DNA of 61,188 nucleotides from Candidatus Nealsonbacteria bacterium (GTDB taxonomy: Bacteria > Patescibacteriota > Minisyncoccia > Minisyncoccales > GWA2-46-15), in assembly GCA_016207115.1 (NCBI GenBank), contig JACQQI010000026.1:1-61188 (forward strand). The letters are read 5' to 3'. The translations under genes were made by a program, and so were the position numbers. Within the stretch, counting starts at the first letter, position 1; each line of letters opens with the position of its first letter. The notes under the pieces were generated by a model. It did not search any database. It worked only from the letters and a program-made list of their open reading frames with translations, and had not been told where the DNA came from. This document shows, piece by piece, positions 3,258 through 38,810 of the stretch.

Positions 3258-4217
3258 TTAAACTAAACCGGTGATTATCTTTGCCAGTTTCTGGGAATCG
3301 TGTTCTAAGGGTCCCGATTTCAAGAAAAGGTTGGCGCCGATAAACTTAGCTTCGTTTAAATTATCATCGATCTTGACCAAGCTTATCAACTCCGGATGGT
3401 CTTTAAAATATTTCTTGATTCTCGAGGCGGGCGGGACAAAATTATTATAGACGACGTAGTCTGGGCTTGACCCGAGATATTTTTCGATCTCGTCACTGAA
3501 CTTCTGGACGGAAAAATCATTGGTCTCGCCGTACTTCGTCACCAGATTGCAGACGTAGACGGTTTTGGCCCGACTCTGGCGAACGGCTCGGGCCACGCCC
3601 TCGGTGAGAAGAATCTGCGCCAGTGAAGAATAAAGATCGCCGGGGCCGATCACAATTAAATCCGCTTCCCGGATGGCCTTGAGAGACGGAGAATAGGCCT
3701 TGATCTGAGGGCGCAAGAATACTTTCTTAATTTTCAAACGTCCATCGTGTTTGGGTTTGTCGATGTTGGTTTCTCCGGAGATAATCTTTCCGTTGGCCAA
3801 AACGGCAAAAAGAGTTGATTTCTCCAGGGTCACGGGCAGAACCTGATGGGCGACGTTCAAAAACTTGCTCATTTCGGACAAAACCTTCTGATAGTCATTG
3901 GTCGCCAGCTCCAGGGCGGTGATGAAAAGATTGGCCAGGTTATGCCCCTTCAACTGGCCATCTTCGAAACGGTAATTGAACAAATTCTCGATGATCGGCG
4001 AAGTATTAGCCAGAGCCAAAAAGGCCCGCCGAATATCTCCCGGAGAAACGATGCCATAGTCCTTTCTTAGACGCCCGGCTGATCCGCCCGTGTCGAGCAT
4101 GGCACAGACGGCCGAGATCCTGACCGGATAGTGCTTGAGACCAGCCAAAACCGCTTTGGGCATGGCGTTGCCGCCGCCCAGACAGACAATATGTTTTTGC
4201 TTAATCCGCTTTGACAT
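3258..4217 (-). CDS. YvcK/CofD-family protein (gluconeogenesis-factor-like)
   Basis: IVCLGGGNAMP and IGPGDLYSS motifs. Start set at ATG 4217 (MSKRIKQKH) rather than the longest ORF start at 4253. Confidence 0.7.
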   Translation of the reverse strand: MSKRIKQKHIVCLGGGNAMPKAVLAGLKHYPVRISAVCAMLDTGGSAGRLRKDYGIVSPGDIRRAFLALANTSPIIENLFNYRFEDGQLKGHNLANLFITALELATNDYQKVLSEMSKFLNVAHQVLPVTLEKSTLFAVLANGKIISGETNIDKPKHDGRLKIKKVFLRPQIKAYSPSLKAIREADLIVIGPGDLYSSLAQILLTEGVARAVRQSRAKTVYVCNLVTKYGETNDFSVQKFSDEIEKYLGSSPDYVVYNNFVPPASRIKKYFKDHPELISLVKIDDNLNEAKFIGANLFLKSGPLEHDSQKLAKIITGLV

Positions 4218-4276: not shown

Positions 4277-5545
4277 ATGCCAGAAAAATTTCTCGTTCGG
4301 GGCGGAAAGCCCCTTCGGGGCGAAGTGCGGATCTCTGGTTCCAAAAATTCGGCGGCCGGACTGTTGCCCGCGACCCTACTGACCAGCGAAGCCTGTGAGA
4401 TCTCTAATCTGCCCCAGATCAGCGACGTTTTGAATCTGGTCGAAATTATCAAACAAATGGGAGCCGAGGTGAATTGGCTGGGAGAAAGAAAGGTCCGGAT
4501 CCGCGCCAAAGACGTTGACCCTTCAAAAATACCTTCGGAACTCTTTGAGAAGGCGCGCATGTCGGTTCTACTGATCGGCCCCCTCTTGAGCCGCTTCGCT
4601 TCTTTCAAAATCCCCCATCCCGGTGGCGACAAGATCGGTTTGCGGCCCATCACCACCCACTTGGAAGGACTGCAGTCTTTCGGCGCCCAAGTTCACAACA
4701 GCGGCCAATTTTACCACTTCGAAAGGCCAAAAAACCTGCGGGGAGCCAGGGTAGTTTTGAAAGAATTCAGCGTCACGGCCACGGAAAATGTCCTGCTGGC
4801 CGCCTCCTTGGCCAAGGGCAACACCCAGATAGAAATCGCCGCCGCCGAGCCCCACGTCCAAAAACTGGGCGAATTCCTGAGAAAAATGGGGCTGGAAATC
4901 GAGGGCGAGGGCACTCACACCATCAAGATCCAGGGTGCTAAAAAACTGCGGGGCGCCAAAGACGTTGTCCCGCCGGATTACATCGAGGCCGGCACCTTTT
5001 TGATCGCTCTGGCCATCACCGGCGGACAGGGGCTAATCAGAAACGCCGAAGCCCAGCATCTGAGCTTCTTTTTGGAAAGAATGAGGGAAATCGGCGTCAA
5101 TTTCCAGGTCCACGGCAAAACCATTCGGGTGGAGAAATCGAAAAGCCTCAAAGCGGCCCGAATCCAAGTTTTGCCCCATCCGGGCTTCCCGACCGACCTC
5201 CAGCCGCAAACCTGCGCCCTGCTAACCCAAGTCGAAGGAAAAAGCCTGGTCCACGATCCTTTATACGAGAACCGTTTCTCGCACTTGCACGAACTGCGCA
5301 AAATGGGCGCGGACATCGAAATCACCGATCCTCACCGCGCTTTAATTTTCGGCCCAACCAAACTCCTAGGAACCAAGGTTGATAGTACCGATATCCGTTG
5401 CGGCGCCTCTCTGGTTCTGGCGGCTTTGGCCGCCCAGGGCCAAACCCTCATCAGCGGAACGGAACAGGTTGACCGCGGTTACGAGAAAATCGAAGAAAAA
5501 CTCGGCGCGCTCGGCGCCCGAATCGAAAGGATCAAAGAGAATTAG
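4277..5545 (+). CDS. murA: UDP-N-acetylglucosamine 1-carboxyvinyltransferase
   Basis: 422 aa. KFLVRGGKPLRGEVRISGSKNSA N-terminus, full-length EPSP-synthase fold pattern, and a C-terminal DRGYEKIEEKL typical of MurA. Confidence 0.9.
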   Translation: MPEKFLVRGGKPLRGEVRISGSKNSAAGLLPATLLTSEACEISNLPQISDVLNLVEIIKQMGAEVNWLGERKVRIRAKDVDPSKIPSELFEKARMSVLLIGPLLSRFASFKIPHPGGDKIGLRPITTHLEGLQSFGAQVHNSGQFYHFERPKNLRGARVVLKEFSVTATENVLLAASLAKGNTQIEIAAAEPHVQKLGEFLRKMGLEIEGEGTHTIKIQGAKKLRGAKDVVPPDYIEAGTFLIALAITGGQGLIRNAEAQHLSFFLERMREIGVNFQVHGKTIRVEKSKSLKAARIQVLPHPGFPTDLQPQTCALLTQVEGKSLVHDPLYENRFSHLHELRKMGADIEITDPHRALIFGPTKLLGTKVDSTDIRCGASLVLAALAAQGQTLISGTEQVDRGYEKIEEKLGALGARIERIKEN

Positions 5546-5557
5546 GAAAGGATAAAT

Positions 5558-7984
5558 CTAGACGACGAAATTAATCAGTTTCCCCGGGACGAAAATAGTC
5601 CTTCTTATCTCTTTCCCCGTCAAATACTGCGCCACGCGCGGCTCTTTTTTGGCGACGGCCTCGACCTCACTCTGAATTACAGATCTACCGTTTTCAATCT
5701 GGACTTGCCCCCTTACCCGTCCGGTCACCTGAACGATGACCGTCAACATTTTCTCAACTATCAATTGAGGGTTATAGGTCGGCCACGGCTGCTGGTGGAC
5801 GGAAAACTGGTTGCCCAAAGTTTCGCACCAGATCTCTTCGGCGATGTGGGGAGCCGAAGGCGCCAGGATCTGCGCAAACAACTGGGCATCCTCCCGGGAC
5901 AGATAACTATCGCTCCAGTCATTGATGAATTCCATCAGGGAGGCGACCATCGTATTAAACTTTAAATCCTCTAAATCTTGGCCCACCTTTCTTATGGTTA
6001 AATGAAGCTTTCTCAATAAGTCGGCTGGGGTTTCTTCCGCCTTGACGTTGTTCTGGAACAGCTGCCAGACGCGGCCCAAAAACCGCGAACAGCCCTGCAA
6101 GCTTTGTTCCGACCAGGCGATGGCCTGGTCGAACGGCCCCATGAACATTTCATAGAGCCGCAAGGTATCGGCGCCGTACTTTAAAACTATTTCGTCCGGA
6201 TTGACGACGTTGCCAAAGCTCTTGGACATCTTACGGTTGTCCGGGCCCAAGACGATGCCGTGCGACCTTCTCTTGGCGTAGGGCTCGGGAGTATTGACCG
6301 CGCCAATGTCGTACAGAAACTTATGAATAAAGCGAGAGTACAAAAGATGCAGGGTCGTATGCTCAAAGCCGCCCTGGTAGAGGTCTACCGGCATCCAGTA
6401 TTTTATCTTTTGTGAATCGGCCAGAGATTTGTCGTTCTGGTTGTCCAAATAGCGCAAGAAATACCAGTTGGAACCGGCCCAGTTGGGCATGGTGTCGGTT
6501 TCCCTCTTGGCCAGACCGCCGCATCGCGGGCATTTGGTATTGACCCAGTCGGTCATCTTGGCCAGAGGCGACTCGCCCGTACCCGATGGCTCATACTTCT
6601 CAACATAAGGCAGCTCGACGGGCAGGTCTTTTTCCGACACCGGAACCGCACCGCACTTTGGGCAGTGCACCACCGGAATGGGCTCTCCCCAATAATGCTG
6701 CCGGGAGAAAATCCAATCCCGCAAATGAAAAATTGTCTGTCTCTTGCCCCACCCCTTTTGCTCAATGTAATCCATCATCCTCTTTGTCGCCGCTTTAATA
6801 TCCAAACCATTCAAAAAATCAGAATTGACCATCTTCCCCTCTTGCTCTTGAACTTGTTCTGGTTTAAAAATATCCGAGGTGTCACCGTCCGGACCGACAA
6901 CGACGCGGATGATTTTTAGGTCGAACTCTTTAGCAAATTCAAAATCACGAAGGTCGTGGCCGGGGACGCCAACAACGGCGCCGGTGCCAAAGCTCATCAA
7001 GGCAAAATCAGACACCCAGATCGGCATGCGCAAATTGGTCAGGGGATTTAAGGCATAACAACCGGTAAAGACGCCGGTTTTTTTGCGGCCTTGACTGATT
7101 CTTTCCTCTTCGGTTTTTGCCTTGGCCGCTGCAACATAATTTAACGTCTTTTCTTTGTATTCTTCAATGACGATTTTTTCAACGAGCGGATGCTCTGGCG
7201 CCAAGACAACAAAAGTCGCGCCAAAATTCGTGTCCGGCCGAGTGGTAAAAACGGTTACCTTTTCTTCCGTCTTTTCAATTTCATAAACAATGTTGATGCC
7301 TTCTTTTTTGCCGATCCAATTCACTTGCTGGATAGCGATTTTAGACGAGTAGTCAACCAACCTCAAATCGTCCAAAAGGCGCTGGGCGTATTGGGTGATT
7401 TTTAACAACCACTGCTCTTGCTGTCTCTTTTCGGTCGGCTGGCCGCATCTCTCGTGTAGGCCGTCGGCCAAAACTTCCTCGTCGGCTAGAGTCGTTTTGC
7501 AAAACGGACACCAGTTGACCGGCGTTTTGGCCCGATAGGCCAATCCTTTTTCTAGCAGCCGCAAGAAAATCCACTGGGTCCACTGGTAATACTTGGGGTC
7601 GGTCGTGTTGATTTCCCGCTCCCAATCAAAGGAAAACCCCAGATCCTGACACTGCTTCTTGAAACGAGCAATGTTTTCTGAAACGGTCTGAGAAGGATGC
7701 CGGCCCATCTTCAGGGCATAATTCTCGGCCGGCAGACCGAAAGCGTCCCAGCCAATCGGATAGAGAACATTAAAACCCTCCATCCTCTTTTTCCGAGAGA
7801 AGGCGTCCATGGCCGACCAGCTGCGGGCGTGGCCGACGTGCAAGCCGGCGCCCGAAGGATAAGGGAATTCGATCAGGGTGTAAAACTTGGGCTTCGGATC
7901 AAAATCAATTGCCCGATAGATCTTTTCTTTCTCCCATTTCTCTTGCCACTTTTTCTCGATTTTCTGCGGTTCGTAAGGGTTCAT
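5558..7984 (-). CDS. leuS: Leucyl-tRNA synthetase
   Basis: HVGH (GLHVGHARSW) and KMSKS (KMSKSFGN) class I motifs and a CP1 editing region. Start set at MNPYEPQKIEKKWQ (ATG 7984), 4 nt after the upstream stop. Confidence 0.95.
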   Translation of the reverse strand: MNPYEPQKIEKKWQEKWEKEKIYRAIDFDPKPKFYTLIEFPYPSGAGLHVGHARSWSAMDAFSRKKRMEGFNVLYPIGWDAFGLPAENYALKMGRHPSQTVSENIARFKKQCQDLGFSFDWEREINTTDPKYYQWTQWIFLRLLEKGLAYRAKTPVNWCPFCKTTLADEEVLADGLHERCGQPTEKRQQEQWLLKITQYAQRLLDDLRLVDYSSKIAIQQVNWIGKKEGINIVYEIEKTEEKVTVFTTRPDTNFGATFVVLAPEHPLVEKIVIEEYKEKTLNYVAAAKAKTEEERISQGRKKTGVFTGCYALNPLTNLRMPIWVSDFALMSFGTGAVVGVPGHDLRDFEFAKEFDLKIIRVVVGPDGDTSDIFKPEQVQEQEGKMVNSDFLNGLDIKAATKRMMDYIEQKGWGKRQTIFHLRDWIFSRQHYWGEPIPVVHCPKCGAVPVSEKDLPVELPYVEKYEPSGTGESPLAKMTDWVNTKCPRCGGLAKRETDTMPNWAGSNWYFLRYLDNQNDKSLADSQKIKYWMPVDLYQGGFEHTTLHLLYSRFIHKFLYDIGAVNTPEPYAKRRSHGIVLGPDNRKMSKSFGNVVNPDEIVLKYGADTLRLYEMFMGPFDQAIAWSEQSLQGCSRFLGRVWQLFQNNVKAEETPADLLRKLHLTIRKVGQDLEDLKFNTMVASLMEFINDWSDSYLSREDAQLFAQILAPSAPHIAEEIWCETLGNQFSVHQQPWPTYNPQLIVEKMLTVIVQVTGRVRGQVQIENGRSVIQSEVEAVAKKEPRVAQYLTGKEIRRTIFVPGKLINFVV

Positions 7985-7988
7985 GGAA

Positions 7989-8831
7989 TTAGATTTTGAA
8001 TAATCGGCGGGCATTTTCCGTCGTTATTCGGGCAACCTCTTCATAGCTCACTCCCTTTATTTTGGCAATCTCTTCGACGACAAAACGAACAAAGACGGGT
8101 TCGTTCCTCTCTCGGTCCGCTCGAGGCGGAGTTAAATAAGGAGCATCCGTTTCCACGAGTGTTTTTTCTAAAGGCGCGGCCTTAATTATCTCTGGCCAAT
8201 CAATTCCCGGAATCTGCCGGAAAATAATTCCGGTGAAACCGAGATATAGTCCTAAGCCCAGATATTCCTTCGCCTGCTCAACCGTTCCGGTAAAGCAGTG
8301 GATGACGCCACCCGACTCATGGCGGGGCTGACTTTTCAGGGTCTCAATCAGATCCGAGTGAGCCGAACGGCAATGGAAAATGATCGGCCGATTTAATTCC
8401 GCGGCCAAGCCCATTTGCTCTCCCAGGGCTTTTTTCTGTAAAGACTGAAACTCTTCCAGTCGGGCCTTGGTTTTGGGTTTGTAGTAATAATCCAGGCCGA
8501 TTTCGCCGATGGCCACCACTCTTTGCGAGCTCCGGGCCAATTTGCGATAATCTTCAATATTAAACTCTCCCAGTCTTTCCTGGCCAATCAACTCTTCCGG
8601 ATCCAGCTTGTTTTTCATTAAATGACCCGTAACGTGAATTGGGTGTAGGCCGATCGCAGCAAAAACGCCTTGAGGATATTTTTCGGCCAGCTCAACTGTT
8701 CTTCGGCTCGTTGCTAACTGCGAACCGACGTTGACGACCCAGACGTCATTATCCAAGCAACGCCGAATAATCTCGTCGGCGTCATTTTGGAAAGCCTGAA
8801 AGTTCAAATGAGCGTGGGTATCAATCAGCAT
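7989..8831 (-). CDS. TatD-family metal-dependent hydrolase/DNase
   Basis: 280 aa. MLIDTHAHLNF, GEIGLDYY, IFHCR and ETDAPYL motifs. The start ATG lies inside repeat copy A. Confidence 0.85.
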   Translation of the reverse strand: MLIDTHAHLNFQAFQNDADEIIRRCLDNDVWVVNVGSQLATSRRTVELAEKYPQGVFAAIGLHPIHVTGHLMKNKLDPEELIGQERLGEFNIEDYRKLARSSQRVVAIGEIGLDYYYKPKTKARLEEFQSLQKKALGEQMGLAAELNRPIIFHCRSAHSDLIETLKSQPRHESGGVIHCFTGTVEQAKEYLGLGLYLGFTGIIFRQIPGIDWPEIIKAAPLEKTLVETDAPYLTPPRADRERNEPVFVRFVVEEIAKIKGVSYEEVARITTENARRLFKI

Positions 8832-8874: not shown

Positions 8875-9789
8875 TTAAGAGTTGTTTAAAAGAATCCGAG
8901 AGCGCCAGAAAGCGACCCCGACCAAAAAGAAAGTGACTAGGGTGGGCAGGTAATCCGGCAGATTCAGGCCCAAGCTCTCGACAATCATGAAAATTCCCAG
9001 AAAACCGATCGAAGTCATGGCGCCATTCTTTAAAAATCTGTATTGGGCTACCCTATCGATCCCTTTGATGGTCAATTCTCTGACCACCAGAGCGCCCAGG
9101 CCGTTGCCGATCAAGATTAAAGGCAGAGAGGTGGTAAAAGCAAAGGCGCCGACGACGCCGTCCAAGCTGAAAGAAGTGTCGAGGACTTCCAGATACATTA
9201 ATTTGGAAAAATCCGACAGATGCGTGTCGCCCGTCAGCAGTTTTTGTTCTTGTTTTTGCGCCTGTTCCCGAAAGCCATAGAGAATGAAAAACAGGGCGTT
9301 GCCGATGGCCGCCGACAGCATCAGCAGGGGCGTGCCGCGGGCGATGTATAAAAGGCCAACGAGCAAAAGCGCGGCAAAAGCGAAAAACCAAATGCCGAAA
9401 TCGGCCGAGATCAGCCGGTCGGGCACAAAGAAGGGTGTCTTTTCCTCCAAGAACAACCAGTGCAGATACAAGAGCAGCAGGAACACGCCGGCGGCGATCA
9501 GGATTAGTCCCTTTCTCGCTTCCAAAAGATCGGCCACGTGAGGGTCGGAAGAAAAGAACATCTGGAAAACACCGCTCAAGCCGATCTCGGGCGCCGAAAG
9601 CCAAACAATGATCATGGGAAAAATTCCCCGGACGATAAAGACGGCCGTGAATATTCCCCAGACCAGAAAAATCTTGCGCCATCTCAAACTCATCGTCTTT
9701 AAGACGTGGGCGTTGACGATGGCATTGTCGATCGAATTGACCGTCTCGAAAACGACCAAACCCAGGATGACGATCAGAAAACTGAACAT
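8875..9789 (-). CDS. Integral membrane protein, DUF475 (TerC-related) family
   Basis: 304 aa with multiple TM segments. N-terminal ETVNSIDNAIVNAHVL resembles the DUF475 signature. A TACAAT box lies 6 nt upstream of the ATG, suggesting a leaderless mRNA. Confidence 0.55.
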   Translation of the reverse strand: MFSFLIVILGLVVFETVNSIDNAIVNAHVLKTMSLRWRKIFLVWGIFTAVFIVRGIFPMIIVWLSAPEIGLSGVFQMFFSSDPHVADLLEARKGLILIAAGVFLLLLYLHWLFLEEKTPFFVPDRLISADFGIWFFAFAALLLVGLLYIARGTPLLMLSAAIGNALFFILYGFREQAQKQEQKLLTGDTHLSDFSKLMYLEVLDTSFSLDGVVGAFAFTTSLPLILIGNGLGALVVRELTIKGIDRVAQYRFLKNGAMTSIGFLGIFMIVESLGLNLPDYLPTLVTFFLVGVAFWRSRILLNNS

Positions 9790-9827
9790 TTTAAAATTGT
9801 AGCGAAATCAAGGAAATTAATAAAGAG

Positions 9828-9863
9828 AAGAAGGCGCCCCGGTAATTTCTCGAGACGCCTTCT
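9828..9863 (-). terminator. Hairpin terminator after micro-ORF 1
   Basis: Minus strand reads AGAAGGCG-19 nt-CGCCTTCT followed by TCTCTTTATTAATTT. Confidence 0.5.
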
Positions 9864-9868
9864 GACCG

Positions 9869-9913
9869 CTAGTACCAAAAAGTACAGCGGCCACGGAAGG
9901 ACCAACGGATCAT
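9869..9913 (-). CDS. Micro-ORF 1, 14 aa: MIRWSFRGRCTFWY
   Basis: Hand translation; too short for the ORF track. AGAAAGGAGG lies 8 nt upstream of the ATG. It is paralogous to micro-ORFs 2 and 3, with only synonymous changes in the 7 core codons. Confidence 0.55.
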   Translation of the reverse strand: MIRWSFRGRCTFWY

Positions 9914-10080
9914 CAGCCACTCCTCCTTTCTAAAGAACTAAACTGGCCTTTTGAAAGACCAGTTTGAGAAAGTCGAAGTGATTCTAAGCAACCATTACCT
10001 CAACGCGCCAAAACTGGCCCCTAGAGTCCAGAGGTAATAGTAGTAATATCTAATTTTAATCATCTTGACCCTCATGAAAA
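9914..10080 (-). promoter_or_regulatory. Promoter plus structured leader of micro-ORF 1 (candidate riboswitch/attenuator)
   Basis: -35 TTTTCA (10080..10075), 16-nt spacer, -10 TAAAAT (10058..10053). P1 stem ATTACCTC/GAGGTAAT (10038..10031 with 10001..9994). CTTCGACTTTCT anti-SD. Hairpin AAACTGGTC/GGCCAGTTT (9965..9940). SD at 9930..9921. Confidence 0.5.
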
Positions 10081-10085
10081 TGGGT

Positions 10086-10121
10086 GGAGAGAGCGCCGAC
10101 GATCGACGCAACGCTCTCTCC
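10086..10121 (-). terminator. Hairpin terminator after micro-ORF 2
   Basis: 10-bp stem GGAGAGAGCG/CGCTCTCTCC with a 16-nt loop, followed by ACCCATTTTCA. Confidence 0.5.
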
Positions 10122-10130
10122 GTTTCGCCG

Positions 10131-10175
10131 CTACCCGAAGATATAGGTGCAGCGGCCCTTGTTGGACCAACGCAT
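10131..10175 (-). CDS. Micro-ORF 2, 14 aa: MRWSNKGRCTYIFG
   Basis: Hand translation. AGAAAGGAGG lies upstream with an 8-nt spacer. Paralog of micro-ORFs 1 and 3. Confidence 0.55.
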   Translation of the reverse strand: MRWSNKGRCTYIFG

Positions 10176-10376
10176 TGTTGGATCCTCCTTTCTTCTAACC
10201 CCAGAACGAAAAAACCGGCTTCAGGGGCCAGTTTCAGGAAGTCGAAGTTAAGAAATTCTCTCGCTTTAACTACCTAAAACTAGTCCCGGCCGATGAGCCT
10301 GGTAGCTAAAGTAAAAGAATTTCCTGGTCGACTGATTCATATACAGACATCATAACGCTATTTTTCCTAGTGTCAA
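10176..10376 (-). promoter_or_regulatory. Promoter plus structured leader of micro-ORF 2
   Basis: -35 TTGACA (10376..10371), 16-nt spacer, -10 TATGAT (10354..10349). P1 stem TTAGCTACC/GGTAGTTAA (10309..10266). Intrinsic terminator AAACTGGC-7 nt-GCCGGTTT plus TTTTTT (10234..10209) sits just before the SD. Confidence 0.55.
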
Positions 10377-10389
10377 GGAGGCTGAAGGA

Positions 10390-10419
10390 AAGGGGGCTCG
10401 GCATCTGCCAAGTCCCCTT
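10390..10419 (-). terminator. Hairpin after micro-ORF 3
   Basis: AAGGGGaCTTGGC-aga-GCCGAGcCCCCTT stem. The U-tract is weak (TTTCCTTC). The -35 of unit 2 follows immediately. Confidence 0.4.
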
Positions 10420-10425
10420 CTGGCG

Positions 10426-10473
10426 TCATAGCCATCGCCAGGTGCAACGGCCCCGGTATGACCAACGAACCAT
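10426..10473 (-). CDS. Micro-ORF 3, 15 aa: MVRWSYRGRCTWRWL
   Basis: Hand translation. AGAAAGGAGG lies 6 nt upstream of the ATG. Paralog of micro-ORFs 1 and 2. Confidence 0.55.
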   Translation of the reverse strand: MVRWSYRGRCTWRWL

Positions 10474-10708
10474 TGGCCTCCTCCTTTCTACTCCCAAATG
10501 AGGAGCAGGGAACTAAAAAACTGGCCCTCAAAAGGCCAGTTCTAGAAAGTTGAAGGAAGTAAGTTATTATCTCAACGCGCCAAAACTAGTCTCTGAAGAG
10601 TAAAGAGATAATAGTTGCCACCAGGCTGACATCGGTTTTGACAATTCTTGATTCATGGTTGACGAGGAGACTCTGTATTCATCATAAGCGCGAGCCGGCT
10701 TTTGTCAA
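10474..10708 (-). promoter_or_regulatory. Promoter plus structured leader of micro-ORF 3
   Basis: -35 TTGACA (10708..10703, 2 nt after the ROK stop), 16-nt spacer, -10 TATGAT (10686..10681). P1 stem TATTATCTC/GAGATAATA (10613..10565). Terminator AACTGGCC-7 nt-GGCCAGTT plus TTTT (10541..10515). Confidence 0.55.
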
Positions 10709-10709
10709 A

Positions 10710-11582
10710 TCAGGACAGAAGCGCGCCCAAACAGGCGGCGTGATCGATCGAAGAAGTAACGGCGTCTTGGAACTGGAAAAAACCAATGGTCTCTCTCCGA
10801 TAAATTTCCAGGGCTTGAGGTAAAAACAGGTCGGCGGATTCCTTCAAAGAACCGTTGAGAATAATCCTCTGGGGGTTGTAAAAATAGCTGACTTCGGCCA
10901 AAAACCGGGCTAAGTGACTGATAAAAATATCGATCGTCTTCCGGGCGATTGGATCTTCCTTTGAAACTGAAAAAATCTGTTGGGCCGTCAATTCCTTCTG
11001 GGCCAGCTCCCGATAAATATTGCTGACGCCCTTGCCGGAAAGGAAATCGTCGATCTTGAAAGATTTATAATTAAGCTCTGGAACAATCTCCTCTTTCTGT
11101 GAAATCTCGCCGGCGTTGTTGGTGAAGCCCGGAATCAGCTTCCCCCCAACCACGTAGCTGAGGCGCAGACCCGTGCCCAAATTAATTAGAAGAAAGCTCT
11201 GGCAATCCCGGCCCTGTCCGAATCGACTTTCCGCCAGAGCCATGGCGTTGACGTCGTTTTCGAGAGAAACGCCCAGGCCAAACTCTTTTGAGAATTCTTG
11301 GACCAGCGGGTATTCTGTCGGGCCACCCAAAAGAGAGCTGTGAGTGATGACTCCGTCTTTGACGATACAGTTGAAACTTACCCCCAGCCGGTCGATGCCC
11401 GGCGTTAGGTTGTCGGCGATCATCTTCTTGATCGACCGGAGGAACTCCGGGCTGCCCGCAGGAAAGTCCGAAGTGGCTATCTTATTGCTGGAAAGAAGGC
11501 GATAGTTTCCGTCGAATTTGCAAACTTCAATTTTGGTTCCGCCGACATCCAGAGACAAAAACTTGGCCGGAGGACTAGTCAT
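10710..11582 (-). CDS. ROK-family sugar kinase/regulator-like protein
   Basis: FLSLDVGGTKIEV ATP-binding motif, NDVNAMALAE and LINLGTGL. Start set at ATG 11582 (MTSPPAKF). That ATG overlaps the upstream stop in ATGACTAG, implying translational coupling. Confidence 0.7.
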   Translation of the reverse strand: MTSPPAKFLSLDVGGTKIEVCKFDGNYRLLSSNKIATSDFPAGSPEFLRSIKKMIADNLTPGIDRLGVSFNCIVKDGVITHSSLLGGPTEYPLVQEFSKEFGLGVSLENDVNAMALAESRFGQGRDCQSFLLINLGTGLRLSYVVGGKLIPGFTNNAGEISQKEEIVPELNYKSFKIDDFLSGKGVSNIYRELAQKELTAQQIFSVSKEDPIARKTIDIFISHLARFLAEVSYFYNPQRIILNGSLKESADLFLPQALEIYRRETIGFFQFQDAVTSSIDHAACLGALLS

Positions 11583-12708
11583 GGGCGATGTAATAGAATG
11601 GCTTATTCTCTCGATCTTGATCGAAGTAGACCAAGGTATAGTCGAGAGGACGACGCTTGATATCAATCAGATATTCGATCAGAAAAAGGTTCTTTTTCGG
11701 GTAACAGACGGGAACGCCATGATAGGGTAAGCGGATACATTCTTTATTGACCGGGATAATGCCCAAGCGGTTGGGCTTGGGTGAGACGGTCAAGGGTAAG
11801 GCGTGGGGCACGGCTCTGGCTAAATAATCAATGTCATCGCGCACTTTGAGGTAGGCGTGGTATTGGAAGATCGATTCGTGAGCCCGACTTTTGATGTCGC
11901 GGCGAATCTCTCTGGCTTCGGCCGATATTTCTTCGTCTTTGAGGCCTTCGTTGTAGACGTCTAAAAGCAGGCTTTCATCGTAACCCTTGGTCGAAACGAT
12001 GCGCAGCACCGATTCAAAAGTGCCCTGGTATTTTTTCAAAAACTCCGGATCTTGTTGTCGGTAAAGTTTTTTGAACTCTAAGGTCCTTTGTCGGTGGCGC
12101 TCGATAAAATCAGGCACGGTCTTTTCCATTTCGGACAGATCAACAATCTTTAAGGCGGGAGAGAAGGCTAGCCATTTGTTCAGAGCCTCCAAAAACTCGC
12201 GGTAGGCAATCCAGTCTGGTCGCGGCACGCCGGTAAACTGACCAAAAGCGCCCTCCGTGAAAATTGTCACCGTGGCTCCCGGCGGATAAATGTCTTTGAT
12301 GATATCGATGACGGTTTTCAATCTCGCCAGAGACAAAACTTCGCCTAGATCGGGTAAAACACGGTTGGTTTTTAAGGGTACGGGGATCTTGAAGGGAAAC
12401 CCCAGGATCGTCAGCTGGATCGGTTGGCTTTGATTGATGAAATAATTGAGTTTTTCGATCCAGAGGTTTTGATTCTCTTCGATGTATTCGGCGGGGCCGA
12501 AGCGGTAATTTTCGTCTTGGAAGATTGAAAGGATTTTTTCTGCCGTCGTCCCTCCTTCGATCCGGGGCCGGGAAACCGGAATTCGGTCGATGATCTCCTT
12601 TAGCTCTGCGATGGTGATGTTTTTCTGGTCGACAAAATTCTGACGGATGTTTTTATTCGCCAAGTTCTCAAAAGGGGTGTAGGGATAAACGTAAGGATTG
12701 GGCTTCAT
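11575..12708 (-). CDS. DIT1/PvcA (isocyanide synthase / pyoverdine-dityrosine biosynthesis) family-like protein
   Basis: 377 aa. From memory of PvcA: ILGFPFKIPVPLKTNRVLPDLGEVLSL..IYPPGATVTIFTEGAFG parallels LPAFPGKSPNP.KVLG..PD.AE...YPPGA.I...SDG.VF. C-terminal LTVSPKPNRLGI...LPYHGVPV parallels RLSIHPQ..KFGI..TPWHGVAV. The start overlaps the HAD stop (ATGA). Confidence 0.55.
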   Translation of the reverse strand: MKPNPYVYPYTPFENLANKNIRQNFVDQKNITIAELKEIIDRIPVSRPRIEGGTTAEKILSIFQDENYRFGPAEYIEENQNLWIEKLNYFINQSQPIQLTILGFPFKIPVPLKTNRVLPDLGEVLSLARLKTVIDIIKDIYPPGATVTIFTEGAFGQFTGVPRPDWIAYREFLEALNKWLAFSPALKIVDLSEMEKTVPDFIERHRQRTLEFKKLYRQQDPEFLKKYQGTFESVLRIVSTKGYDESLLLDVYNEGLKDEEISAEAREIRRDIKSRAHESIFQYHAYLKVRDDIDYLARAVPHALPLTVSPKPNRLGIIPVNKECIRLPYHGVPVCYPKKNLFLIEYLIDIKRRPLDYTLVYFDQDRENKPFYYIAHD

Positions 12709-13487
12709 ACTCTAAAAAATTGCTCTAAATTATCGACTATCATGTTAGCACGTTTTTTGAGCTCGTGAGAACGGTGACCGACTAAAACTTTCAGGCCAAA
12801 GCCTTTTTCAAAGAGGCTCTGGTCATTGTCGTCGTTACCGAAAATAGCCACCTGGCTGGCTTTTATCTTCAGCCTACGGCAGACAAAGTTGACGGCTTTT
12901 GCCTTGCTCACTCCCCGGCCGACGAAATTCAGAGTATCGTCGTTGTAAAGAGCGTTGGCGGCTCGGGGCGGAATCAATCTCGCTTTTGTTTTTATAAAGA
13001 TCAGTGACGGCTTCTCCAATTCGGCTCTGAGAAAGAATTCTTCTCTTGAAGAGATGAAGTTTTTGTGGATATTCGGATAACTCTTCTTTAGTTCTTTTTC
13101 AAAACGTTCATTGGCGGCGATAAAAACTCCTTTATTATCCGTCTGCCAGAAGCCGATGAACCCGACTTGTCTGCTCTTTTGCTCAACAAAATTTCTGGTC
13201 AGAACGATTTCTTCCCCTTTTAACCTCCGCAGAAAAATATTGTTCTTTTGGTAGGTGACAATAGCGCTCCCGTCGAGAATGATTAAAGGCGCATTAAATC
13301 GAATGGGCCTCGTGCCTTCGATCATCGTTTCGAAGCCGCGCCCCGTGGCCACGGTGCAAAAAACTCCCCTTTTTTGAAGGTTAATGATCGCCCGGCTCAC
13401 CCCGGCAGAAATGGGTTTACCCTTTTCTTTCAGGGTACCGTCGATATCAAAAACGCAAAGACGGATGTTTTTAAAATTATCGGTCAT
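12705..13487 (-). CDS. HAD-superfamily hydrolase, Cof-type (IIB) phosphatase
   Basis: 260 aa. CVFDIDGTL (motif I DxDGT), TGR (motif II) and GNDDND (motif IV). Confidence 0.75.
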   Translation of the reverse strand: MTDNFKNIRLCVFDIDGTLKEKGKPISAGVSRAIINLQKRGVFCTVATGRGFETMIEGTRPIRFNAPLIILDGSAIVTYQKNNIFLRRLKGEEIVLTRNFVEQKSRQVGFIGFWQTDNKGVFIAANERFEKELKKSYPNIHKNFISSREEFFLRAELEKPSLIFIKTKARLIPPRAANALYNDDTLNFVGRGVSKAKAVNFVCRRLKIKASQVAIFGNDDNDQSLFEKGFGLKVLVGHRSHELKKRANMIVDNLEQFFRV

Positions 13488-13569: not shown

Positions 13570-15171
13570 CTACTTTGTGTAGTAAAAAACGTAATCGGGT
13601 CCGGCGAACCCGAAGTCTCGCGGTGAAACACGAACTGGTATGACGCCCGGGTGCTCGTTCGCCACACGACACTCGGGTACGATGTGCATCTTATGCCCGC
13701 CGTCCTGACTCCGGTAGACGACCGGCATCCCGTGGTTCAGGAGCGCGTTGGCCGTGACGTCGAAGACGATCCTGGCAACTTTATCGGTGATGCACGCATC
13801 GATAAAATTCTGTAGACCGGTCAGCTTGACGAACATACCCGCCTTTTTACGGTAGGCGAGATGTTGCGCGATGACCAGAGCCTTGGTCTCGGCCTCCCGC
13901 CACAACTCTTCTCCGATCAACCGACGGAGCGCGGCGTAGTCGCGATCGCGGTTGACATAGAGGTCAGCCATGGCGTCCACGCTGACCATAGCCGGCAGGC
14001 TGCAGGCAATGGCGTAGGTCTGGTCAAAGTCCACCCTGACCGAGATGGCTTCGACTTCTTGCCATGGAAAGAGATCCGACTTCAACTCTTTCACCTCCAC
14101 TGGCGCCTCGAGTTCTTTGAAGAGCCGACGGGAGATGGTCAGCATCTGATTCACCCCCTGGGGATCGACTCCCATCAGCGAAGCGAAGAGCGTTGCCTCG
14201 TCAAAGATCACGATTCGGAGACCGGGCTTGTAGATCGTTCTGACCTTCTCCTGCAGCAAGCGGAAGAAGAAAGCCAGATAGACCCAGCCGAGCGTCGGCA
14301 AGGAAACGATCTCGCGGAACTTCAGCGGGTTCGGGATCCGTGTGCCCAGGGCGAAGGACAGGGTGATCGGCACGGGCTGGCCGCGGCGAACGTAATCACC
14401 GATGACGCCAGTCAAACGCGCCGCTTCTGCCTTGGGCATTTCCACTTCCTCGCTGTGAGTCAGGAGAATTTGGAGAATGCCGTCCGGTACACTACCCTTT
14501 GGTGACTTGTAGCCGCTCATTCTCGTGGCCAGCAATGAGTGATAGAAAGCCAGTTCTCTAGCGAGAGTCGTTTTGCCGTCCGCCATGTCGGGCAGGGTAA
14601 TTCCCGGGCCTTTCGTGACCATAGTCACGCCCTTGGGTGCCTTGGCGGCTTTGTCGAGAATGCCGGTAAGGTCCGCGTGAAACCGTTGATTCGCACAGGG
14701 GACTCGCACTGGCAACTCTGTGCCGTCCACGGTGATCACCGCGGCTTCTTCCCTTATCCTTACCTCGATCAGGTGTCGGAAAAGATGAGGGCGCCGTGGC
14801 AACTTGTCCGAGACGAACACCTTTGCCCTTTCGATGCCCGGCGTCAGACTGACACAGCCATCCGGGTCGTAGACCCAACTGCTCTGGCTGAATAGTCCGA
14901 CCACCGCCTCTGGCTTCAAGCCCGATCCGTTCTTTTCGTCACCCTTCGGTTCACGGCAATGCAGATCCAGCTGTTGCAAGACGTCTGAGGCGAACCCGGT
15001 CGGTAGCACAAAAACCGTCTCGGTAAGTCGGTGACCATCGAAGGCTTTTGCCGAACCAACGTCCACCAGCCCGATCCAGAAGTCGTCTGCTTCCAATAAC
15101 TCTAATGCCACCTCGGTAGCATCGCCGCTCTCTGGAAGCCGAGAAGCGGCTACGTCCAACAGGATGTCCAT
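13570..15171 (-). CDS. Hypothetical protein; unknown N-terminal ~250 aa plus C-terminal DIT1/PvcA-like domain
   Basis: 533 aa. PITLSFALGTRIPNPLKF..LPTLGW...IYKPGLRIVIFDEATLFA and LLNHGMPVV...YVFYYTK align by eye with the 377-aa paralog (ILGFPFKIPVPLK..LPDLGE..IYPPGATVTIFTEGAFG; LPYHGVPV...PFYYIAHD). The region is visibly more GC-rich than its flanks and carries long antisense ORFs. Confidence 0.5.
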   Translation of the reverse strand: MDILLDVAASRLPESGDATEVALELLEADDFWIGLVDVGSAKAFDGHRLTETVFVLPTGFASDVLQQLDLHCREPKGDEKNGSGLKPEAVVGLFSQSSWVYDPDGCVSLTPGIERAKVFVSDKLPRRPHLFRHLIEVRIREEAAVITVDGTELPVRVPCANQRFHADLTGILDKAAKAPKGVTMVTKGPGITLPDMADGKTTLARELAFYHSLLATRMSGYKSPKGSVPDGILQILLTHSEEVEMPKAEAARLTGVIGDYVRRGQPVPITLSFALGTRIPNPLKFREIVSLPTLGWVYLAFFFRLLQEKVRTIYKPGLRIVIFDEATLFASLMGVDPQGVNQMLTISRRLFKELEAPVEVKELKSDLFPWQEVEAISVRVDFDQTYAIACSLPAMVSVDAMADLYVNRDRDYAALRRLIGEELWREAETKALVIAQHLAYRKKAGMFVKLTGLQNFIDACITDKVARIVFDVTANALLNHGMPVVYRSQDGGHKMHIVPECRVANEHPGVIPVRVSPRDFGFAGPDYVFYYTK

Positions 15172-15374
15172 CGCTCAGTCCTTTCTTGAGACTAGTGTCT
15201 TTGCCTCCGAACCGGCAAAGTCAATCAATCATTCTCGGCGCCGGTTCGGCGGCGCCAGATTCGTGCATAGGCACACCTCCATATGTGCGTTTTTTGGATT
15301 TTCAACGAACTGACCCAGGCTTCTGACCTGGGGCTGGCCACCGATCTCGACGGCCAACGTCCAAGTCAGGAGAC

Positions 15375-15644: not shown

Positions 15645-17072
15645 CTAATTCAATCGCGGGAAGAGATTTTCCTTTTTGTTCGTCAAAAGCTGCTGCTGTA
15701 TTTTCGCCGATGTCTCCGGCAAAAAGGGTACCAGGGAGTCAGCGACGGCGCCAATAACCAGCAGCAAGTCGCCGATAACCTGTTTCGACTGCTCTTTTTC
15801 CTCCCAGGGCTTGGTTTTATCGATGTAGCGGTCGCAAAAAGCGATCAACTGCCAGATGGCCAAAAGTGCTTCGTTGAATTTAAATTCCTGCATGGCTTTT
15901 CCGACTTTTTGCTTCATTTCCTCAACCGCCATCGCCAATTCTGGATTCGCTAACTTTGAACTTTGAATTTTGAACTTTGAACTTAACGTTATCACCCGCG
16001 CCACCAGATTGCCCAAGCCGCCGGCTAAATCGGTGTTATAGACCTCTTTCAGCTTACTCTCGGAGAAATCTCCATCTTCAAAGGGAGAAACTTTAGCTAA
16101 AAGATAATACCTCACCGGATCTGTCCCGTATTTTTCTACAAGCTCAATCGGGTTAATAACGTTCCCCAGGCTCTTGCTAATTTTTTGTCCGTCAATGGTT
16201 ATAAATCCATGGATAAATATTTGCTTTGAATTGGCGAGTCCTGCCGACATTAACATCGCTTGCCAGGTGGCCGTTTGTTGCCGAAGGTTATCCTTTCCGG
16301 CAAATTGCACAACCGGCCACCATGTTTTAAACTTCTTCATGTCGTCGGGCCAGCCAACCGCCGAAACATAATTCACCAGAGCGTCAAACCAAACGAACAT
16401 TACTTGCTCCGGATCATTAGGAACGTCTATCCCCCAAGGCATCTTATTCTTTAGCCTAGAAACACTAAAATCTTGTAAACCGTTTTTAACAAAGGTTTTA
16501 ATTTCGTTGAATTTCGACTCCGGTATCACAAAATCTGGAGTTTTATCGTAAAAATCCAAAAGCGGTTTTTGATATTTTGAAAATCTGAAAAAGTAGTTTT
16601 CTTCTTCAATGATTTCTAATTCTCGATTGGGATGGATGAGACAACGGCCATCTGTTAACTCGGAATCTGTTTTTTCTAATTCACATCCAACACAATATTT
16701 AGTTTTGTAGTTTTTCTTATAAATATCCCCTTTTCTGTCGCATTCTCTCCAAAATTCTTGAGCCGCTTTTATGTGGTGCTCGTCTGTTGTACGCACAAAG
16801 TTATTATAACTTAAATTAAGGGCTTTTTTTAAAGCCTCGAATTTAACGGCGTATTCGTCGCAATAACTCTGTGGCTCTTTGCCCGCTTCTACGGCTTTAC
16901 GATAGATTTTGAGGCCATGTTCGTCGACGCCAAAGTTGAAAAAGACATTCTTCCCTTGCAATCTCTGGTAACGAGCCAAGGCGTCAGCTTGCACAATTTC
17001 CAAGGCAAAACCGATGTGTGGCTCGGAATTCACATATGGTAGGGTCGTGGTGATATAAAATTTATTTGTCAT
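15645..17072 (-). CDS. metG: Methionyl-tRNA synthetase
   Basis: PYVNSEPHIGF (HIGH-type) and KISKSLGN (KMSKS-type). Start set at MTNKFYITT (ATG 17072), after the rsmI stop. Confidence 0.9.
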   Translation of the reverse strand: MTNKFYITTTLPYVNSEPHIGFALEIVQADALARYQRLQGKNVFFNFGVDEHGLKIYRKAVEAGKEPQSYCDEYAVKFEALKKALNLSYNNFVRTTDEHHIKAAQEFWRECDRKGDIYKKNYKTKYCVGCELEKTDSELTDGRCLIHPNRELEIIEEENYFFRFSKYQKPLLDFYDKTPDFVIPESKFNEIKTFVKNGLQDFSVSRLKNKMPWGIDVPNDPEQVMFVWFDALVNYVSAVGWPDDMKKFKTWWPVVQFAGKDNLRQQTATWQAMLMSAGLANSKQIFIHGFITIDGQKISKSLGNVINPIELVEKYGTDPVRYYLLAKVSPFEDGDFSESKLKEVYNTDLAGGLGNLVARVITLSSKFKIQSSKLANPELAMAVEEMKQKVGKAMQEFKFNEALLAIWQLIAFCDRYIDKTKPWEEKEQSKQVIGDLLLVIGAVADSLVPFLPETSAKIQQQLLTNKKENLFPRLN

Positions 17073-17085
17073 TGTTTTTAATCTA

Positions 17086-17766
17086 TCACCGAGTGGAAAC
17101 GATGACAACAAACTCCCCTCTCAAATCGGCTCCCTTTAATTGCTCTAAAACCTTATCGAGCCGGCCGCGGTAAGTCTTTTCGAACTTTTTGGTCAGCTCG
17201 TGGCAAACAACAACTCTCGCTTCTGGCCGCATCGCGGCCATCTCCGATAAAGTTTTTAAGATCCGGTGGGTCGATTCGTAAAGAATCACTGGATATTTTG
17301 AATTTAGAGCTTCTTCAAAAAATTTCTTTCTTTTTTTCTTAATCGGCGGGAACCCCAAGAACAGAAACTTGTCCATGGGAAAACCCGCGATTGAGGCCGC
17401 GGCGGCCAGAGCCGAACAGCCGGGAATGGGGACAATATTTAATCGGTCGCCCAAAGCCTCAATCGCCTTTTCTATCAGCTCGTTGCCCGGGTCGGCAATG
17501 CCGGGCGTGCCGGCGTCAGAAACTAGGGCGAGGTTTTTCCCCTCTTTTAAGAGCCCGACGATGTCGTCAACCTTTTGCAGCTGACTGTGCTGATGGTAGC
17601 TGATCAAGGGTTTCTGGATCTGGTAGCGCTCGAGCAGTCTTTTTGTCACCCGGGTATCCTCGGCCAAAATAAAATCAACCCCAGCCAGGGTTTGCCGCGC
17701 GCGCGAAGAGATGTCTTCGAGATTCCCGATCGGAGTCCCGACGATATAAAGAGTAGGCATGACCAT
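17086..17766 (-). CDS. rsmI: 16S rRNA (cytidine1402-2'-O)-methyltransferase
   Basis: 226 aa. LYIVGTPIGNLEDIS, SDAGTPGIADPG and YESTHR motifs of the tetrapyrrole-methylase-fold RsmI. Confidence 0.85.
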   Translation of the reverse strand: MVMPTLYIVGTPIGNLEDISSRARQTLAGVDFILAEDTRVTKRLLERYQIQKPLISYHQHSQLQKVDDIVGLLKEGKNLALVSDAGTPGIADPGNELIEKAIEALGDRLNIVPIPGCSALAAAASIAGFPMDKFLFLGFPPIKKKRKKFFEEALNSKYPVILYESTHRILKTLSEMAAMRPEARVVVCHELTKKFEKTYRGRLDKVLEQLKGADLRGEFVVIVSTR

Positions 17767-29483: not shown

Positions 29484-29803
29484 GGGGGCGAAAAGCTTCG
29501 ACAGAAATCGACCCCAAGAAAGGCAAGCCGAGTCGTCAGACCTCGTTAAAGCTGACACAGATAAATGCTAATTTATCTTCACAACCGGCTTTGGCTGTAG
29601 CTTAAAGCCGCGCCGACCCTAAGGATTCTCGATAATTAAGGTCGGTGTCATGGATCGAGAAAAGTGTTCTTTTTTTTGGCGCAAGCCAAGATTGGCGGGA
29701 AGACGAGCCTAACTGTCCTTCCCGCTTCAAAGAAAATTAGGCTAAGCTTGTAGTCTTTCTCTGGGAAAAATTTCTGGATCCGGGTGCAATCTCGGCGCCT
29801 CCA
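29484..29803 (+). ncRNA. ssrA: tmRNA (SsrA); predicted tag ANLSSQPALAVA
   Basis: The 5' GGGGGCGAAAAGCTTCGAC pairs with the 3' CGCCTCC-A (G3:U pair as in tRNA-Ala). T-arm-like GGATCCGGGTGCAATCTCGG. Tag reading frame GCT AAT TTA TCT TCA CAA CCG GCT TTG GCT GTA GCT TAA at 29577..29615. CCA is not encoded. Confidence 0.85.
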
Positions 29804-29828
29804 CTTCTAGTTTAAAAACTATCGAAAA

Positions 29829-38738: not shown

Positions 38739-38810
38739 TGTCCCCACGAGGATTCGAACCTCGATCTCGACCTCCGGAGGGTCGCGCCTTATCCATTAGG
38801 CAATGGGGAC
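38739..38810 (-). tRNA. tRNA-Arg (anticodon CCG)
   Basis: Hand-folded cloverleaf of GTCCCCA TT GCCT AATGGATA AGGC G CGACC CTCCGGA GGTCG AGAT CGAGG TTCGAAT CCTCG TGGGGAC A. CCA is not encoded. Confidence 0.9.

Follow-up and report, generated by a model that had tools for sequence, protein, structure and literature searches.

Three tandem micro-genes behind predicted Trp, Phe and Tyr attenuators in a Candidatus Nealsonbacteria genome

A 61,188-nt stretch of Candidatus Nealsonbacteria DNA (GenBank assembly GCA_016207115.1, contig JACQQI010000026.1; hereafter the window) carries on its minus strand, between a ROK gene and a DUF475/TerC gene, three cassettes that each contain an open reading frame (ORF) of 14–15 codons. 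This region is probably an array of three amino-acid-starvation switches, for Trp, Phe and Tyr, each with a translated micro-gene as its sole cargo. The anatomy, conservation, peptide-level selection and alternative RNA folds were computed on sequences; what we infer is the direction of regulation (from the anatomy), a transcript shared by the Phe and Tyr cassettes, and all that concerns the action of the peptide. A preliminary description had noticed a conserved structured leader in each cassette but had missed its nature: the leader is present, and it has the features of a transcription attenuator with a Trp-, Phe- or Tyr-specific leader peptide and an intrinsic terminator before the Shine-Dalgarno (SD) site. 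With the leader read as an attenuator, the picture shifts from constitutive micro-genes to micro-genes switched by amino-acid starvation.

Five further cassette copies were found in two other genomes of the Candidate Phyla Radiation (CPR), at syntenic positions upstream of TatD and leucyl-tRNA synthetase (LeuRS) genes. One locus (L001), in a metagenome-assembled genome (MAG) labelled Saccharibacteria, was the single true match of a pattern scan of genomes for the SD, ATG and peptide core, a check that the preliminary description had proposed. The other (L020/L021, GCA_030693425.1) was reached by a synteny walk via TatD homologues. The cassette order Trp, Phe, Tyr was the same in the two genomes holding all three, i.e. 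the window and L001, and eight micro-ORF copies were available in total (three from the window, three from L001 and two from L020). Because their TatD proteins are only 61–73% identical, the three genomes are not near-identical strains.

As shown in Table 1, each cassette has a predicted leader ORF of 22–29 codons that starts with ATG and contains its own run of aromatic codons, and these runs were kept across genomes. The L001 orthologue of the Trp leader (MKIFYVLNSSWWQNQ...) retains the WW pair, and the Trp leader stop codon lies inside a conserved GTTGAGATAA block. The Phe run reads FFYFSYFY in L001 and FFYFNYFY in L020. YYYYY was retained in both orthologues of the Tyr leader (L001 and L020); the Tyr leader has a GAGGG SD-like motif upstream and an alternative ATG at 10075.

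A terminator scan found an intrinsic terminator (AAACTGGcc...ggCCAGTTTTTT) between the conserved leader and the micro-ORF SD in each cassette. The aromatic codon run itself is the 5′ arm of a long 1:2 hairpin, and the 1:2 loop segment (AGAGACUAGUUU plus GUUGAG) can pair instead with the terminator 5′ arm and a CUUCGAC block to give a two-stem antiterminator. In an alignment of the eight leaders, the antiterminator helices were 95.8% paired, compared with 29–60% when the partner was slid by 1–3 columns, and compensatory changes were seen at four antiterminator pairs. The 1:2 hairpin, antiterminator and terminator were all found by ViennaRNA in every copy, with energies of −16 to −34 kcal/mol for the antiterminator and −10 to −16 kcal/mol for the terminator. 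Among the 10 cassettes with this attenuator (type 1) whose terminator folded correctly, to which the comparison was confined, the antiterminator was at least as stable as the terminator in 10/10, being equal in the Trp cassette of the window and 4–20 kcal/mol stronger elsewhere. In the window, antiterminator and terminator had −16.1 and −16.0 kcal/mol in the Trp switch and −24.9 and −13.4 kcal/mol in the Tyr switch, and the Phe antiterminator had −27.5 kcal/mol. A covariance model (R1) built from the leader scored the Trp, Phe and Tyr switches at 101.7, 97.4 and 113.6 bits, respectively.

The leader stop lay inside the GTTRAG(GTAA) inner-stem block in 8/8 micro-ORF cassettes, and its frame relative to the block differed (SFGALR-stop versus LVLGS-stop). 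In three type-1 attenuators before ordinary genes, the stop was at the equivalent place, just before the 3′ arm of the 1:2 hairpin. A conserved stop position in a varying frame is the pattern expected if the position of the stop matters and the sequence of the leader peptide does not. T-box, TRAP-type and riboswitch leaders were considered and rejected: there was no Rfam match, no T-box specifier or TRAP-type triplet repeats were seen on reading, and in-frame aromatic codon runs were present.

The regulatory anatomy is, with high confidence, that of the classical trpL/pheL design. As in E. coli trpL, pheL (pheA) and pheM (pheST), a short leader ORF carries tandem codons for the sensed amino acid, the 1:2, 2:3 (antiterminator) and 3:4 (intrinsic terminator) folds are mutually exclusive, and the position of the leader stop lets a terminating ribosome mask the antiterminator. 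The FFYFSY of the Phe cassette resembles the pheM leader (...FRFFFYFST). Leader-peptide attenuation is textbook control of genes for amino-acid biosynthesis, tRNA charging or transport. Unlike in those systems, the cargo here is an ORF of 14–27 codons and not a biosynthetic, tRNA-synthetase or transport gene; in relatives, attenuators of this type stand before PvcA-like enzymes, a dipeptidase operon and unassigned proteins. Further differences from the E. coli systems are the host (a CPR/Patescibacteria MAG), the three tandem sensors (Trp, Phe and Tyr), the unusual Tyr-only YYYYY attenuator, and several cassette leader ORFs that are leaderless or without SD. In the literature searched, no paper was found that joined leader-peptide attenuation with CPR or Patescibacteria, nor one on Tyr-codon attenuators of this kind.

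Such an anatomy would operate as follows. When the cognate charged tRNA is scarce, a ribosome would stall on the aromatic codons and block the 1:2 hairpin, the antiterminator would form and RNA polymerase would read the micro-ORF. When supply is good, the ribosome would reach the stop codon in the antiterminator inner stem, blocking the antiterminator, so that the terminator would form and the micro-ORF would stay untranscribed. A leader left untranslated would give termination as well.

Re-reading of 9600–10900 placed the three minus-strand micro-ORFs exactly where the preliminary description had them, and the synonymous codon differences that it listed among the three cores were correct. The degenerate core pattern CGNTGGTCN7GGNCGNTGYAC had exactly three matches in the window; with up to three mismatches it had six, compared with 0.58 expected from shuffles, none of which reached six. 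GAAAGGAGG occurred only three times in the window, each time 6–8 nt 5′ of a micro-ORF ATG, in agreement with the strong SD sites described earlier. In the Trp cassette of the window only, a CUCCUC between the terminator and the SD (10489-10515, minus strand) can pair with the GAGGAG of the SD, and such pairing might block translation in addition to attenuation.

Across the eight copies, synonymous change was near saturation and amino-acid change almost absent, which upholds the earlier proposal of selection on the peptide and not only on an RNA. The GRCT block had no non-synonymous changes, and all four of its third positions varied. In the core, Arg was encoded by all four CGN codons, Thr by all four ACN codons and Gly by three codons, and Ser switched between TCN and AGT. 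Over the nine-codon core, the pairwise proportion of synonymous differences (pS) was 0.15–1.0 (median about 0.7), compared with 0–0.33 for non-synonymous differences (pN). RNAalifold gave essentially no consensus RNA structure for the ORF region (−0.58 kcal/mol). A hairpin within the ORF (UGGUC...GGCCG) was rejected as the cause of the conservation, as it was not kept in the Phe copy of L001 and had no consensus fold. The SD was kept in every copy, as the GAAAGGAGG type in 7/8 and as AGAAAGGAGA in the Phe copy of L020. With third positions saturated and RNA structure offering no explanation, the peptide itself is the likely target of selection. The codon pattern thus points with high confidence to purifying selection on the amino-acid sequence of the micro-ORFs, which should hence be translated.

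The conserved module consists of 12 residues, [R/Q]-W-[S/T]-x-[R/K]-G-R-C-T-aromatic-x-aromatic, followed by 0–13 unconserved residues. The ORFs reach 27 codons in relatives, and that of the L020 Phe cassette reads straight through its 3′ hairpin. The peptides were confirmed to be cationic and aromatic, with a net charge of +3 to +6 and four to six aromatics in the first 14–17 residues (read from sequences). They also remained without a recognised family, as no Rfam, Pfam or PDB match to the peptides was obtained: Rfam searches of the region at E≤10 gave chance-level matches only, and a 27-aa copy had no match in Pfam or in a PDB profile search.

The preliminary description had given every cassette a promoter with a 16-nt spacer. 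TTGACA-16-TATGAT was indeed found twice (Table 1); TTTTCA-16-TAAAAT is present once, but whether it works as a promoter is doubtful. For the Tyr cassette, a productive promoter was rejected, the hexamers overlapping the leader start in two genomes and being absent in the third. The ATG of the Phe leader follows the −10 hexamer by 9 nt in the window; in L001 it lies 8 nt downstream of TTGACA-16-TAAGAT, and in L020 a similar distance separates it from a weaker TTGACA/TAATTT pair (read by eye; the promoter scan made no call). With its ATG only 8–9 nt after the −10, the Phe leader ORF would be leaderless or nearly so. In L001 the Trp leader ATG and the stop codon of the amidohydrolase gene preceding it overlap (ATGA).

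A hairpin of its own was described 3′ of each tiny ORF, and this held in 3/3 cassettes; a good U tract was present only in the Tyr cassette and none in the Phe cassette. In L001 the counterpart of the Phe hairpin is likewise without a U tract and stops 8 nt short of the Tyr leader ATG; Tyr leaders start 8–22 nt after the U-tract-less Phe hairpin. Because the Phe hairpin has no U tract and the Tyr cassette no usable promoter, the Phe and Tyr cassettes are probably co-transcribed, the Phe hairpin probably being read through into the Tyr leader. A single transcript fits the Tyr codons of the Phe leader, since with these codons a Tyr shortage could pass both gates.

Ten positions after the invariant Trp (W+10), both Trp cassettes had W, all three Phe cassettes F and all three Tyr cassettes Y, while the residue before W+10 varied freely (R, Q, I, N, W, W, R, R). 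W+10 is thus the amino acid sensed by the cassette's own leader; for three independent classes, a full match among aromatics has a probability of about 1/27, which is suggestive but not conclusive. This match argues against a generic effector and for an amino-acid-specific role of the residue or of its codon. As the last residue of the module is the sensed amino acid, peptide synthesis would be both induced by and dependent on that amino acid. Most likely, though with low confidence, the peptide is a cationic/aromatic effector or regulator that works in trans and is specific for one amino acid. We tentatively propose, as a possibility short of an even chance, that the peptides are starvation tokens, having the common RWSxRGRCT core and a tail that names the lacking amino acid, and being made only when their own attenuator opens. 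Within the same tentative proposal, they might serve as specific signals or regulators, either intracellular or directed at a host, or as nascent-chain sensors by which tRNA charging is read twice. If true, the identity of the missing amino acid would be encoded in a manner hitherto unknown, in a lineage unable to make its own amino acids.

The micro-ORF might instead be a second cis-acting sensor, in which nascent RWSxRGRCT in the exit tunnel strengthens or reports stalling at W+10 and alters the fate of downstream RNA, be it the 3′ hairpin, the next leader or the following membrane-protein gene. Arrest peptides (TnaC, SecM, Erm leaders) are likewise short ORFs conserved at the amino-acid level and equally predict peptide-level selection; in them a critical Trp stands about 10–12 residues from the stall site, with basic residues near the peptidyl-transferase centre. 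In the micro-ORFs the invariant Trp is about 10 residues from the cognate codon, as in TnaC and SecM, the module ends exactly at that codon with the following 0–13 residues free to vary, the hairpin begins 11–18 nt after it in 6/8 copies (read by eye), and a membrane-protein ORF follows the Tyr cassette in 3/3 genomes. We nevertheless consider a cis sensor rather unlikely. A hairpin follows every micro-ORF at variable spacing, and the next element is a promoter, a leader or a membrane-protein gene; there is no consistent downstream target, a new promoter follows the Trp cassette, and the hairpins of the Tyr cassettes resemble plain terminators. The distance from cognate codon to hairpin ranges from 11 to 26 nt and that from stop to hairpin from inside the ORF to +9 nt, and the very strong SD suggests a peptide made in quantity. 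Unlike arrest peptides, the micro-ORFs are not consistently coupled to a gene or RNA switch downstream, and in sequence they show no similarity to arrest peptides. Generic Trp/Arg membrane-active or antimicrobial effectors, released on starvation to damage a host or neighbour and liberate nutrients, with the adjacent membrane proteins serving immunity or export, would account for the cationic, aromatic-rich composition. The peptides are like indolicidin, tritrpticin and the lactoferricin core in size, positive charge and aromatic content, and like phenol-soluble modulins in their predicted direct translation without a signal peptide; a single-pass membrane ORF (MKNRKIIL...PWW...) occurs in the Phe cassette of L020 and after the Tyr cassette of L001, and peptidases are among the co-regulated genes of relatives, suggesting nutrient scavenging. 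This is unlikely, however, as neither a signal peptide or processing site nor an exporter gene was seen, the window lacks the membrane ORF, no family matched, and three separately gated paralogues with a cognate residue would be unneeded, in a lineage that also has mixed-aromatic attenuators. The micro-ORFs differ from those peptides in lacking homology and an exporter, and in having an invariant G-R-C-T core and amino-acid-specific gating, which those peptides do not.

Very unlikely, in our view, are minimal precursors of ribosomally synthesized and post-translationally modified peptides (RiPPs), biarylitide-like, cross-linked at C-T-aromatic-x-aromatic or at the Cys, perhaps by neighbouring PvcA/DIT1-like enzymes. 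The invariant Cys and the aromatic-x-aromatic motif are conserved, and two PvcA/IsnA-fold proteins are encoded just upstream in the window and in L020; but no P450, radical-SAM, YcaO or lanthipeptide-type enzyme was found within about 5 kb in the three genomes, PvcA-type enzymes act on free amino acids, no PvcA gene was present in the 8 kb of L001 examined, and RiPP clusters are not known for amino-acid-specific gating. The suggestion of a thiolactone like that of autoinducing peptides was not supported. A Cys 4–5 residues from the C-terminus, as described for the window, is not general, since the C-terminal extensions of 0–13 residues in relatives put it at 4–17 residues over the eight copies; with no AgrB-like gene near the cassettes, this variable distance disfavours a thiolactone of fixed ring size. 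Hardly tenable is the view that the whole cassette is a non-coding RNA (a riboswitch or protein-binding leader plus a small RNA) with both ORFs incidental. The leader RNA is well conserved and structured, and terminated leaders could act as small RNAs, as rnTrpL does (PMC7968998). Third-position saturation with invariant first and second positions and the codon-family switch of Ser are, however, inexplicable at the RNA level, the ORF region has no consensus structure and no Rfam match, and the cassette-specific in-frame aromatic codon runs are conserved across genomes; the codon pattern already goes most of the way to refuting this view.

Several observations weigh against starvation switches with token-like peptides. 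Inducing a peptide rich in the scarce amino acid is paradoxical. The cognate rule rests on three independent classes, orthologues not being independent observations. The L001 Trp terminator has no U tract (1/8 terminators), and most leader ORFs have no SD, being leaderless, having a short 5′ untranslated region or, in one case, overlapping the stop of the upstream gene through ATGA. No partner, exporter or modifying enzyme is conserved beside the cassettes, and their neighbours differ, being DUF475/TerC in the window and small single-pass membrane ORFs in L001 and L020. Finally, the cassettes are present in only three genomes, and most close relatives are without them at the syntenic site.

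The closest precedents for such micro-genes come from two attenuation systems. In mycobacteria, leaderless polycysteine short ORFs are Cys-responsive attenuators of ordinary operon genes (bioRxiv 10.1101/834739); there too the codon content of a leaderless short ORF senses one amino acid and controls downstream expression, but the amino acid differs, and a conserved micro-protein as cargo is found only in the cassettes. In Sinorhizobium meliloti, the 14-aa Trp-attenuator leader peptide peTrpL acts in trans, and its attenuator RNA, rnTrpL, is also a small RNA (PMC7298713, PMC7968998), a precedent for attenuator loci that yield functional micro-peptides. The cassette peptide, unlike peTrpL, is encoded by a downstream ORF and is proposed to be starvation-induced, whereas peTrpL is the leader itself and is produced under ample Trp; no sequence similarity links the two. 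Neither system has a conserved downstream micro-gene as cargo. The attenuator mechanism itself is known, and the micro-peptide family is new, with three genomes so far. New also is the setting, a tandem Trp/Phe/Tyr array in reduced CPR genomes with a cargo among the shortest conserved protein-coding genes. It bears on how an amino-acid-dependent organism senses and answers shortage of a single amino acid, and on whether 14-residue micro-peptides can carry amino-acid-specific information. The covariance model and the cognate-residue rule are a handle for finding unannotated micro-genes in metagenomes.

Table 1. Predicted features of the three cassettes in the window and of related loci
Feature	Locus	Position	Strand	Details
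Promoter, Trp cassette	window	10681..10708	minus	TTGACA-16-TATGAT; 11/12 consensus matches
Trp leader ORF	window	10567..10656	minus	MNQELSKPMSAWWQLLSLYSSETSFGALR, stop; tandem Trp codons (WW) 10623..10618
Trp attenuator switch	window	10515..10594	minus	antiterminator 5′ strand 10594..10583; shared strand 10542..10531; terminator hairpin and U tract 10543..10515
SD site, Trp micro-ORF	window	10477..10488	minus	GAAAGGAGGAGG
Micro-ORF W (Trp cassette)	window	10426..10473	minus	MVRWSYRGRCTWRWL, stop
3′ hairpin, Trp cassette	window	10392..10417	minus	GC-rich, then UUUCCUU
Promoter, Phe(+Tyr) transcription unit	window	10349..10376	minus	TTGACA-16-TATGAT; 11/12 consensus matches
Phe leader ORF	window	10266..10340	minus	MNQSTRKFFYFSYQAHRPGLVLGS, stop; FFYFSY codons 10319..10302
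Phe attenuator switch	window	10209..10288	minus	antiterminator 5′ strand 10288..10277; shared strand 10234..10223; terminator and U tract 10234..10209
SD site, Phe micro-ORF	window	10182..10192	minus	GAAAGGAGGAT
Micro-ORF F (Phe cassette)	window	10131..10175	minus	MRWSNKGRCTYIFG, stop
3′ hairpin, Phe cassette	window	10086..10121	minus	no U tract
Tyr leader ORF	window	9995..10063	minus	MIKIRYYYYYLWTLGASFGALR, stop; YYYYY codons 10048..10034
Tyr attenuator switch	window	9932..10021	minus	antiterminator 5′ strand 10021..10011; shared strand 9965..9954; terminator and U-rich tail 9965..9932
SD site, Tyr micro-ORF	window	9919..9930	minus	GAAAGGAGGAGT
Micro-ORF Y (Tyr cassette)	window	9869..9913	minus	MIRWSFRGRCTFWY, stop
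3′ hairpin closing the array	window	9819..9862	minus	terminator-like, with U tract; just upstream of DUF475/TerC gene (8875..9789)
Trp cassette	L001			leader ...SSWWQNQ...; peptide MKRWTFRGRCTWQWT
Phe cassette	L001			leader ...FFYFSYFYGLF...; peptide MSRITQWSFRGRCTFNF
Tyr cassette	L001			leader ...LIYYYYYPS...; peptide MVRWSFRGRCTFRYRLRIS
Phe cassette	L020			leader ...FFYFNYFYSLF...; peptide MRRWTFRGRCTFWFIGQSEDRIIYPPH
Tyr cassette	L020			leader ...AYYYYYPL...; peptide MVRWSFRGRCTFRYGPWAS
Type-1 attenuator	L001	7748..7600		leader ...AFWFYYPFIS...; then 242-aa protein, M19 dipeptidase, GNAT, amidohydrolase
Type-1 attenuator	L020	751-900		leader ...SFWFYYPFIS...; then 505-aa protein and DIT1_PvcA
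Type-1 attenuator	L022-L024			leader ...FCFNAFWAVYFYCYSH...; then 445-aa protein
Second-type attenuator	L001	7960..7800	minus	
Second-type attenuator	L020	540-700	plus	
Second-type attenuator	L022	2336-2480	plus	
Single-pass membrane ORF	L001	3283..3140	minus	MKNRKIIL...IPWW... (45-47 aa); after Tyr cassette
Membrane ORF	L020	about 3858-3995	plus	MKNRKIIL...IPWW...; between Phe attenuator and micro-ORF
Second membrane ORF	L020	about 4470-4610	plus	MIPYGLSAIACDPC...; after Tyr cassette

When the loci of relatives were searched with R1, three further copies were found before ordinary genes, with mixed aromatic leaders such as FWFYYPF (Table 1). A second attenuator type has a leader reading MKK...[K/Q][F/Y]WFYSYFL[T/I]L[A/S]GGNLLT.. 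to its stop and a terminator of its own (AAACCUCC...GGAGGUUUU type); in L001 and L020 it lies in tandem directly upstream of the first type, and in L022 it precedes an AstE/AspA-like gene. Overall, the analysis flags a lineage-specific aromatic-starvation regulon of PvcA-like enzymes, peptidases and small membrane proteins. At 1700-2240 (plus strand) of L022, a strong promoter (TTGACA-16-TATTAT), a short ORF with YYYNNNN and a terminator-like hairpin precede a gene for a 67-aa, very basic, Trp-containing protein (..KGKRRWWSIFWKK..), possibly one more small basic protein under attenuator control within the same genomic island; a different small basic protein (..PRGWGRYSNNHRSRK..) is encoded at this site in L018.

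In the three genomes, Pfam assigned the neighbours to ROK, DIT1_PvcA, HAD, DUF475, TatD, amidohydrolase, GNAT and M19 peptidase families, among which there is no known enzyme for cross-linking peptides. Pfam and PDB profile searches gave no match for the small membrane ORFs linked to the cassettes, and the window has no homologue of the MKNRKIIL ORF, DUF475/TerC occupying its position. A 533-aa 'hypothetical' protein (window 13570-15171, minus strand) is homologous to the 505-aa protein of L020 (51% identity). In its structural model (pLDDT 69, higher in the C-terminal part), the C-terminal half matches PvcA/IsnA isonitrile synthases (Foldseek E about 1e-11), and an extra N-terminal beta-rich domain has about 200 aa. 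The family is rare, with 9 proteins in 5.8 billion. The gene appears to form an operon upstream of the cassettes with 12705-13487, 11575-12708 and 10710-11666, whose members include an HAD phosphatase, a canonical DIT1_PvcA protein and a ROK kinase; the four genes could form a small-molecule cluster of the isonitrile type, here in a CPR genome. The homologous PvcA-like pair of L020 sits behind aromatic attenuators, whereas the R1 search found none in front of the 533-aa gene of the window; the region before it (15230-15290, minus strand) has a short ORF (MHESGAAEPAPRMID and stop, or an overlapping frame) and a hairpin-rich 5′ region, with no aromatic attenuator. The only Rfam matches of the window at gathering threshold were a transfer-messenger RNA gene (29484-29806, plus strand, 96.6 bits) and a tRNA gene (38739-38810, minus strand).

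Other searches returned no further cassettes. The leader DNA pattern had no match in GTDB representative genomes, the source genome included. A more degenerate pattern of SD, ATG and core gave eight matches in JGI metagenomes, all unrelated GC-rich chance matches, and none in viral contigs. Synteny walks via ROK homologues (L010-L013) and via TatD homologues (L014-L019 and L022-L026) showed no micro-ORF cassettes. The island that holds the cassettes is variable and lies, in each of the three genomes, between the methionyl-tRNA synthetase (MetRS) gene and TatD-LeuRS. Compared across L014-L026, this island (from 15645-17111 to 5558-8014 in the window) is nearly empty in L025/L026 and contains phosphoenolpyruvate mutase and aminotransferase genes in L015-L018, peptidases in L022, and PvcA-like genes and the cassettes in the window and L020. 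Its flanks are conserved: one comprises M16 peptidase, AI-2E transporter, RsmI-like methylase and MetRS, the other TatD, LeuRS, an EPSP-synthase/MurA-family gene and CofD.

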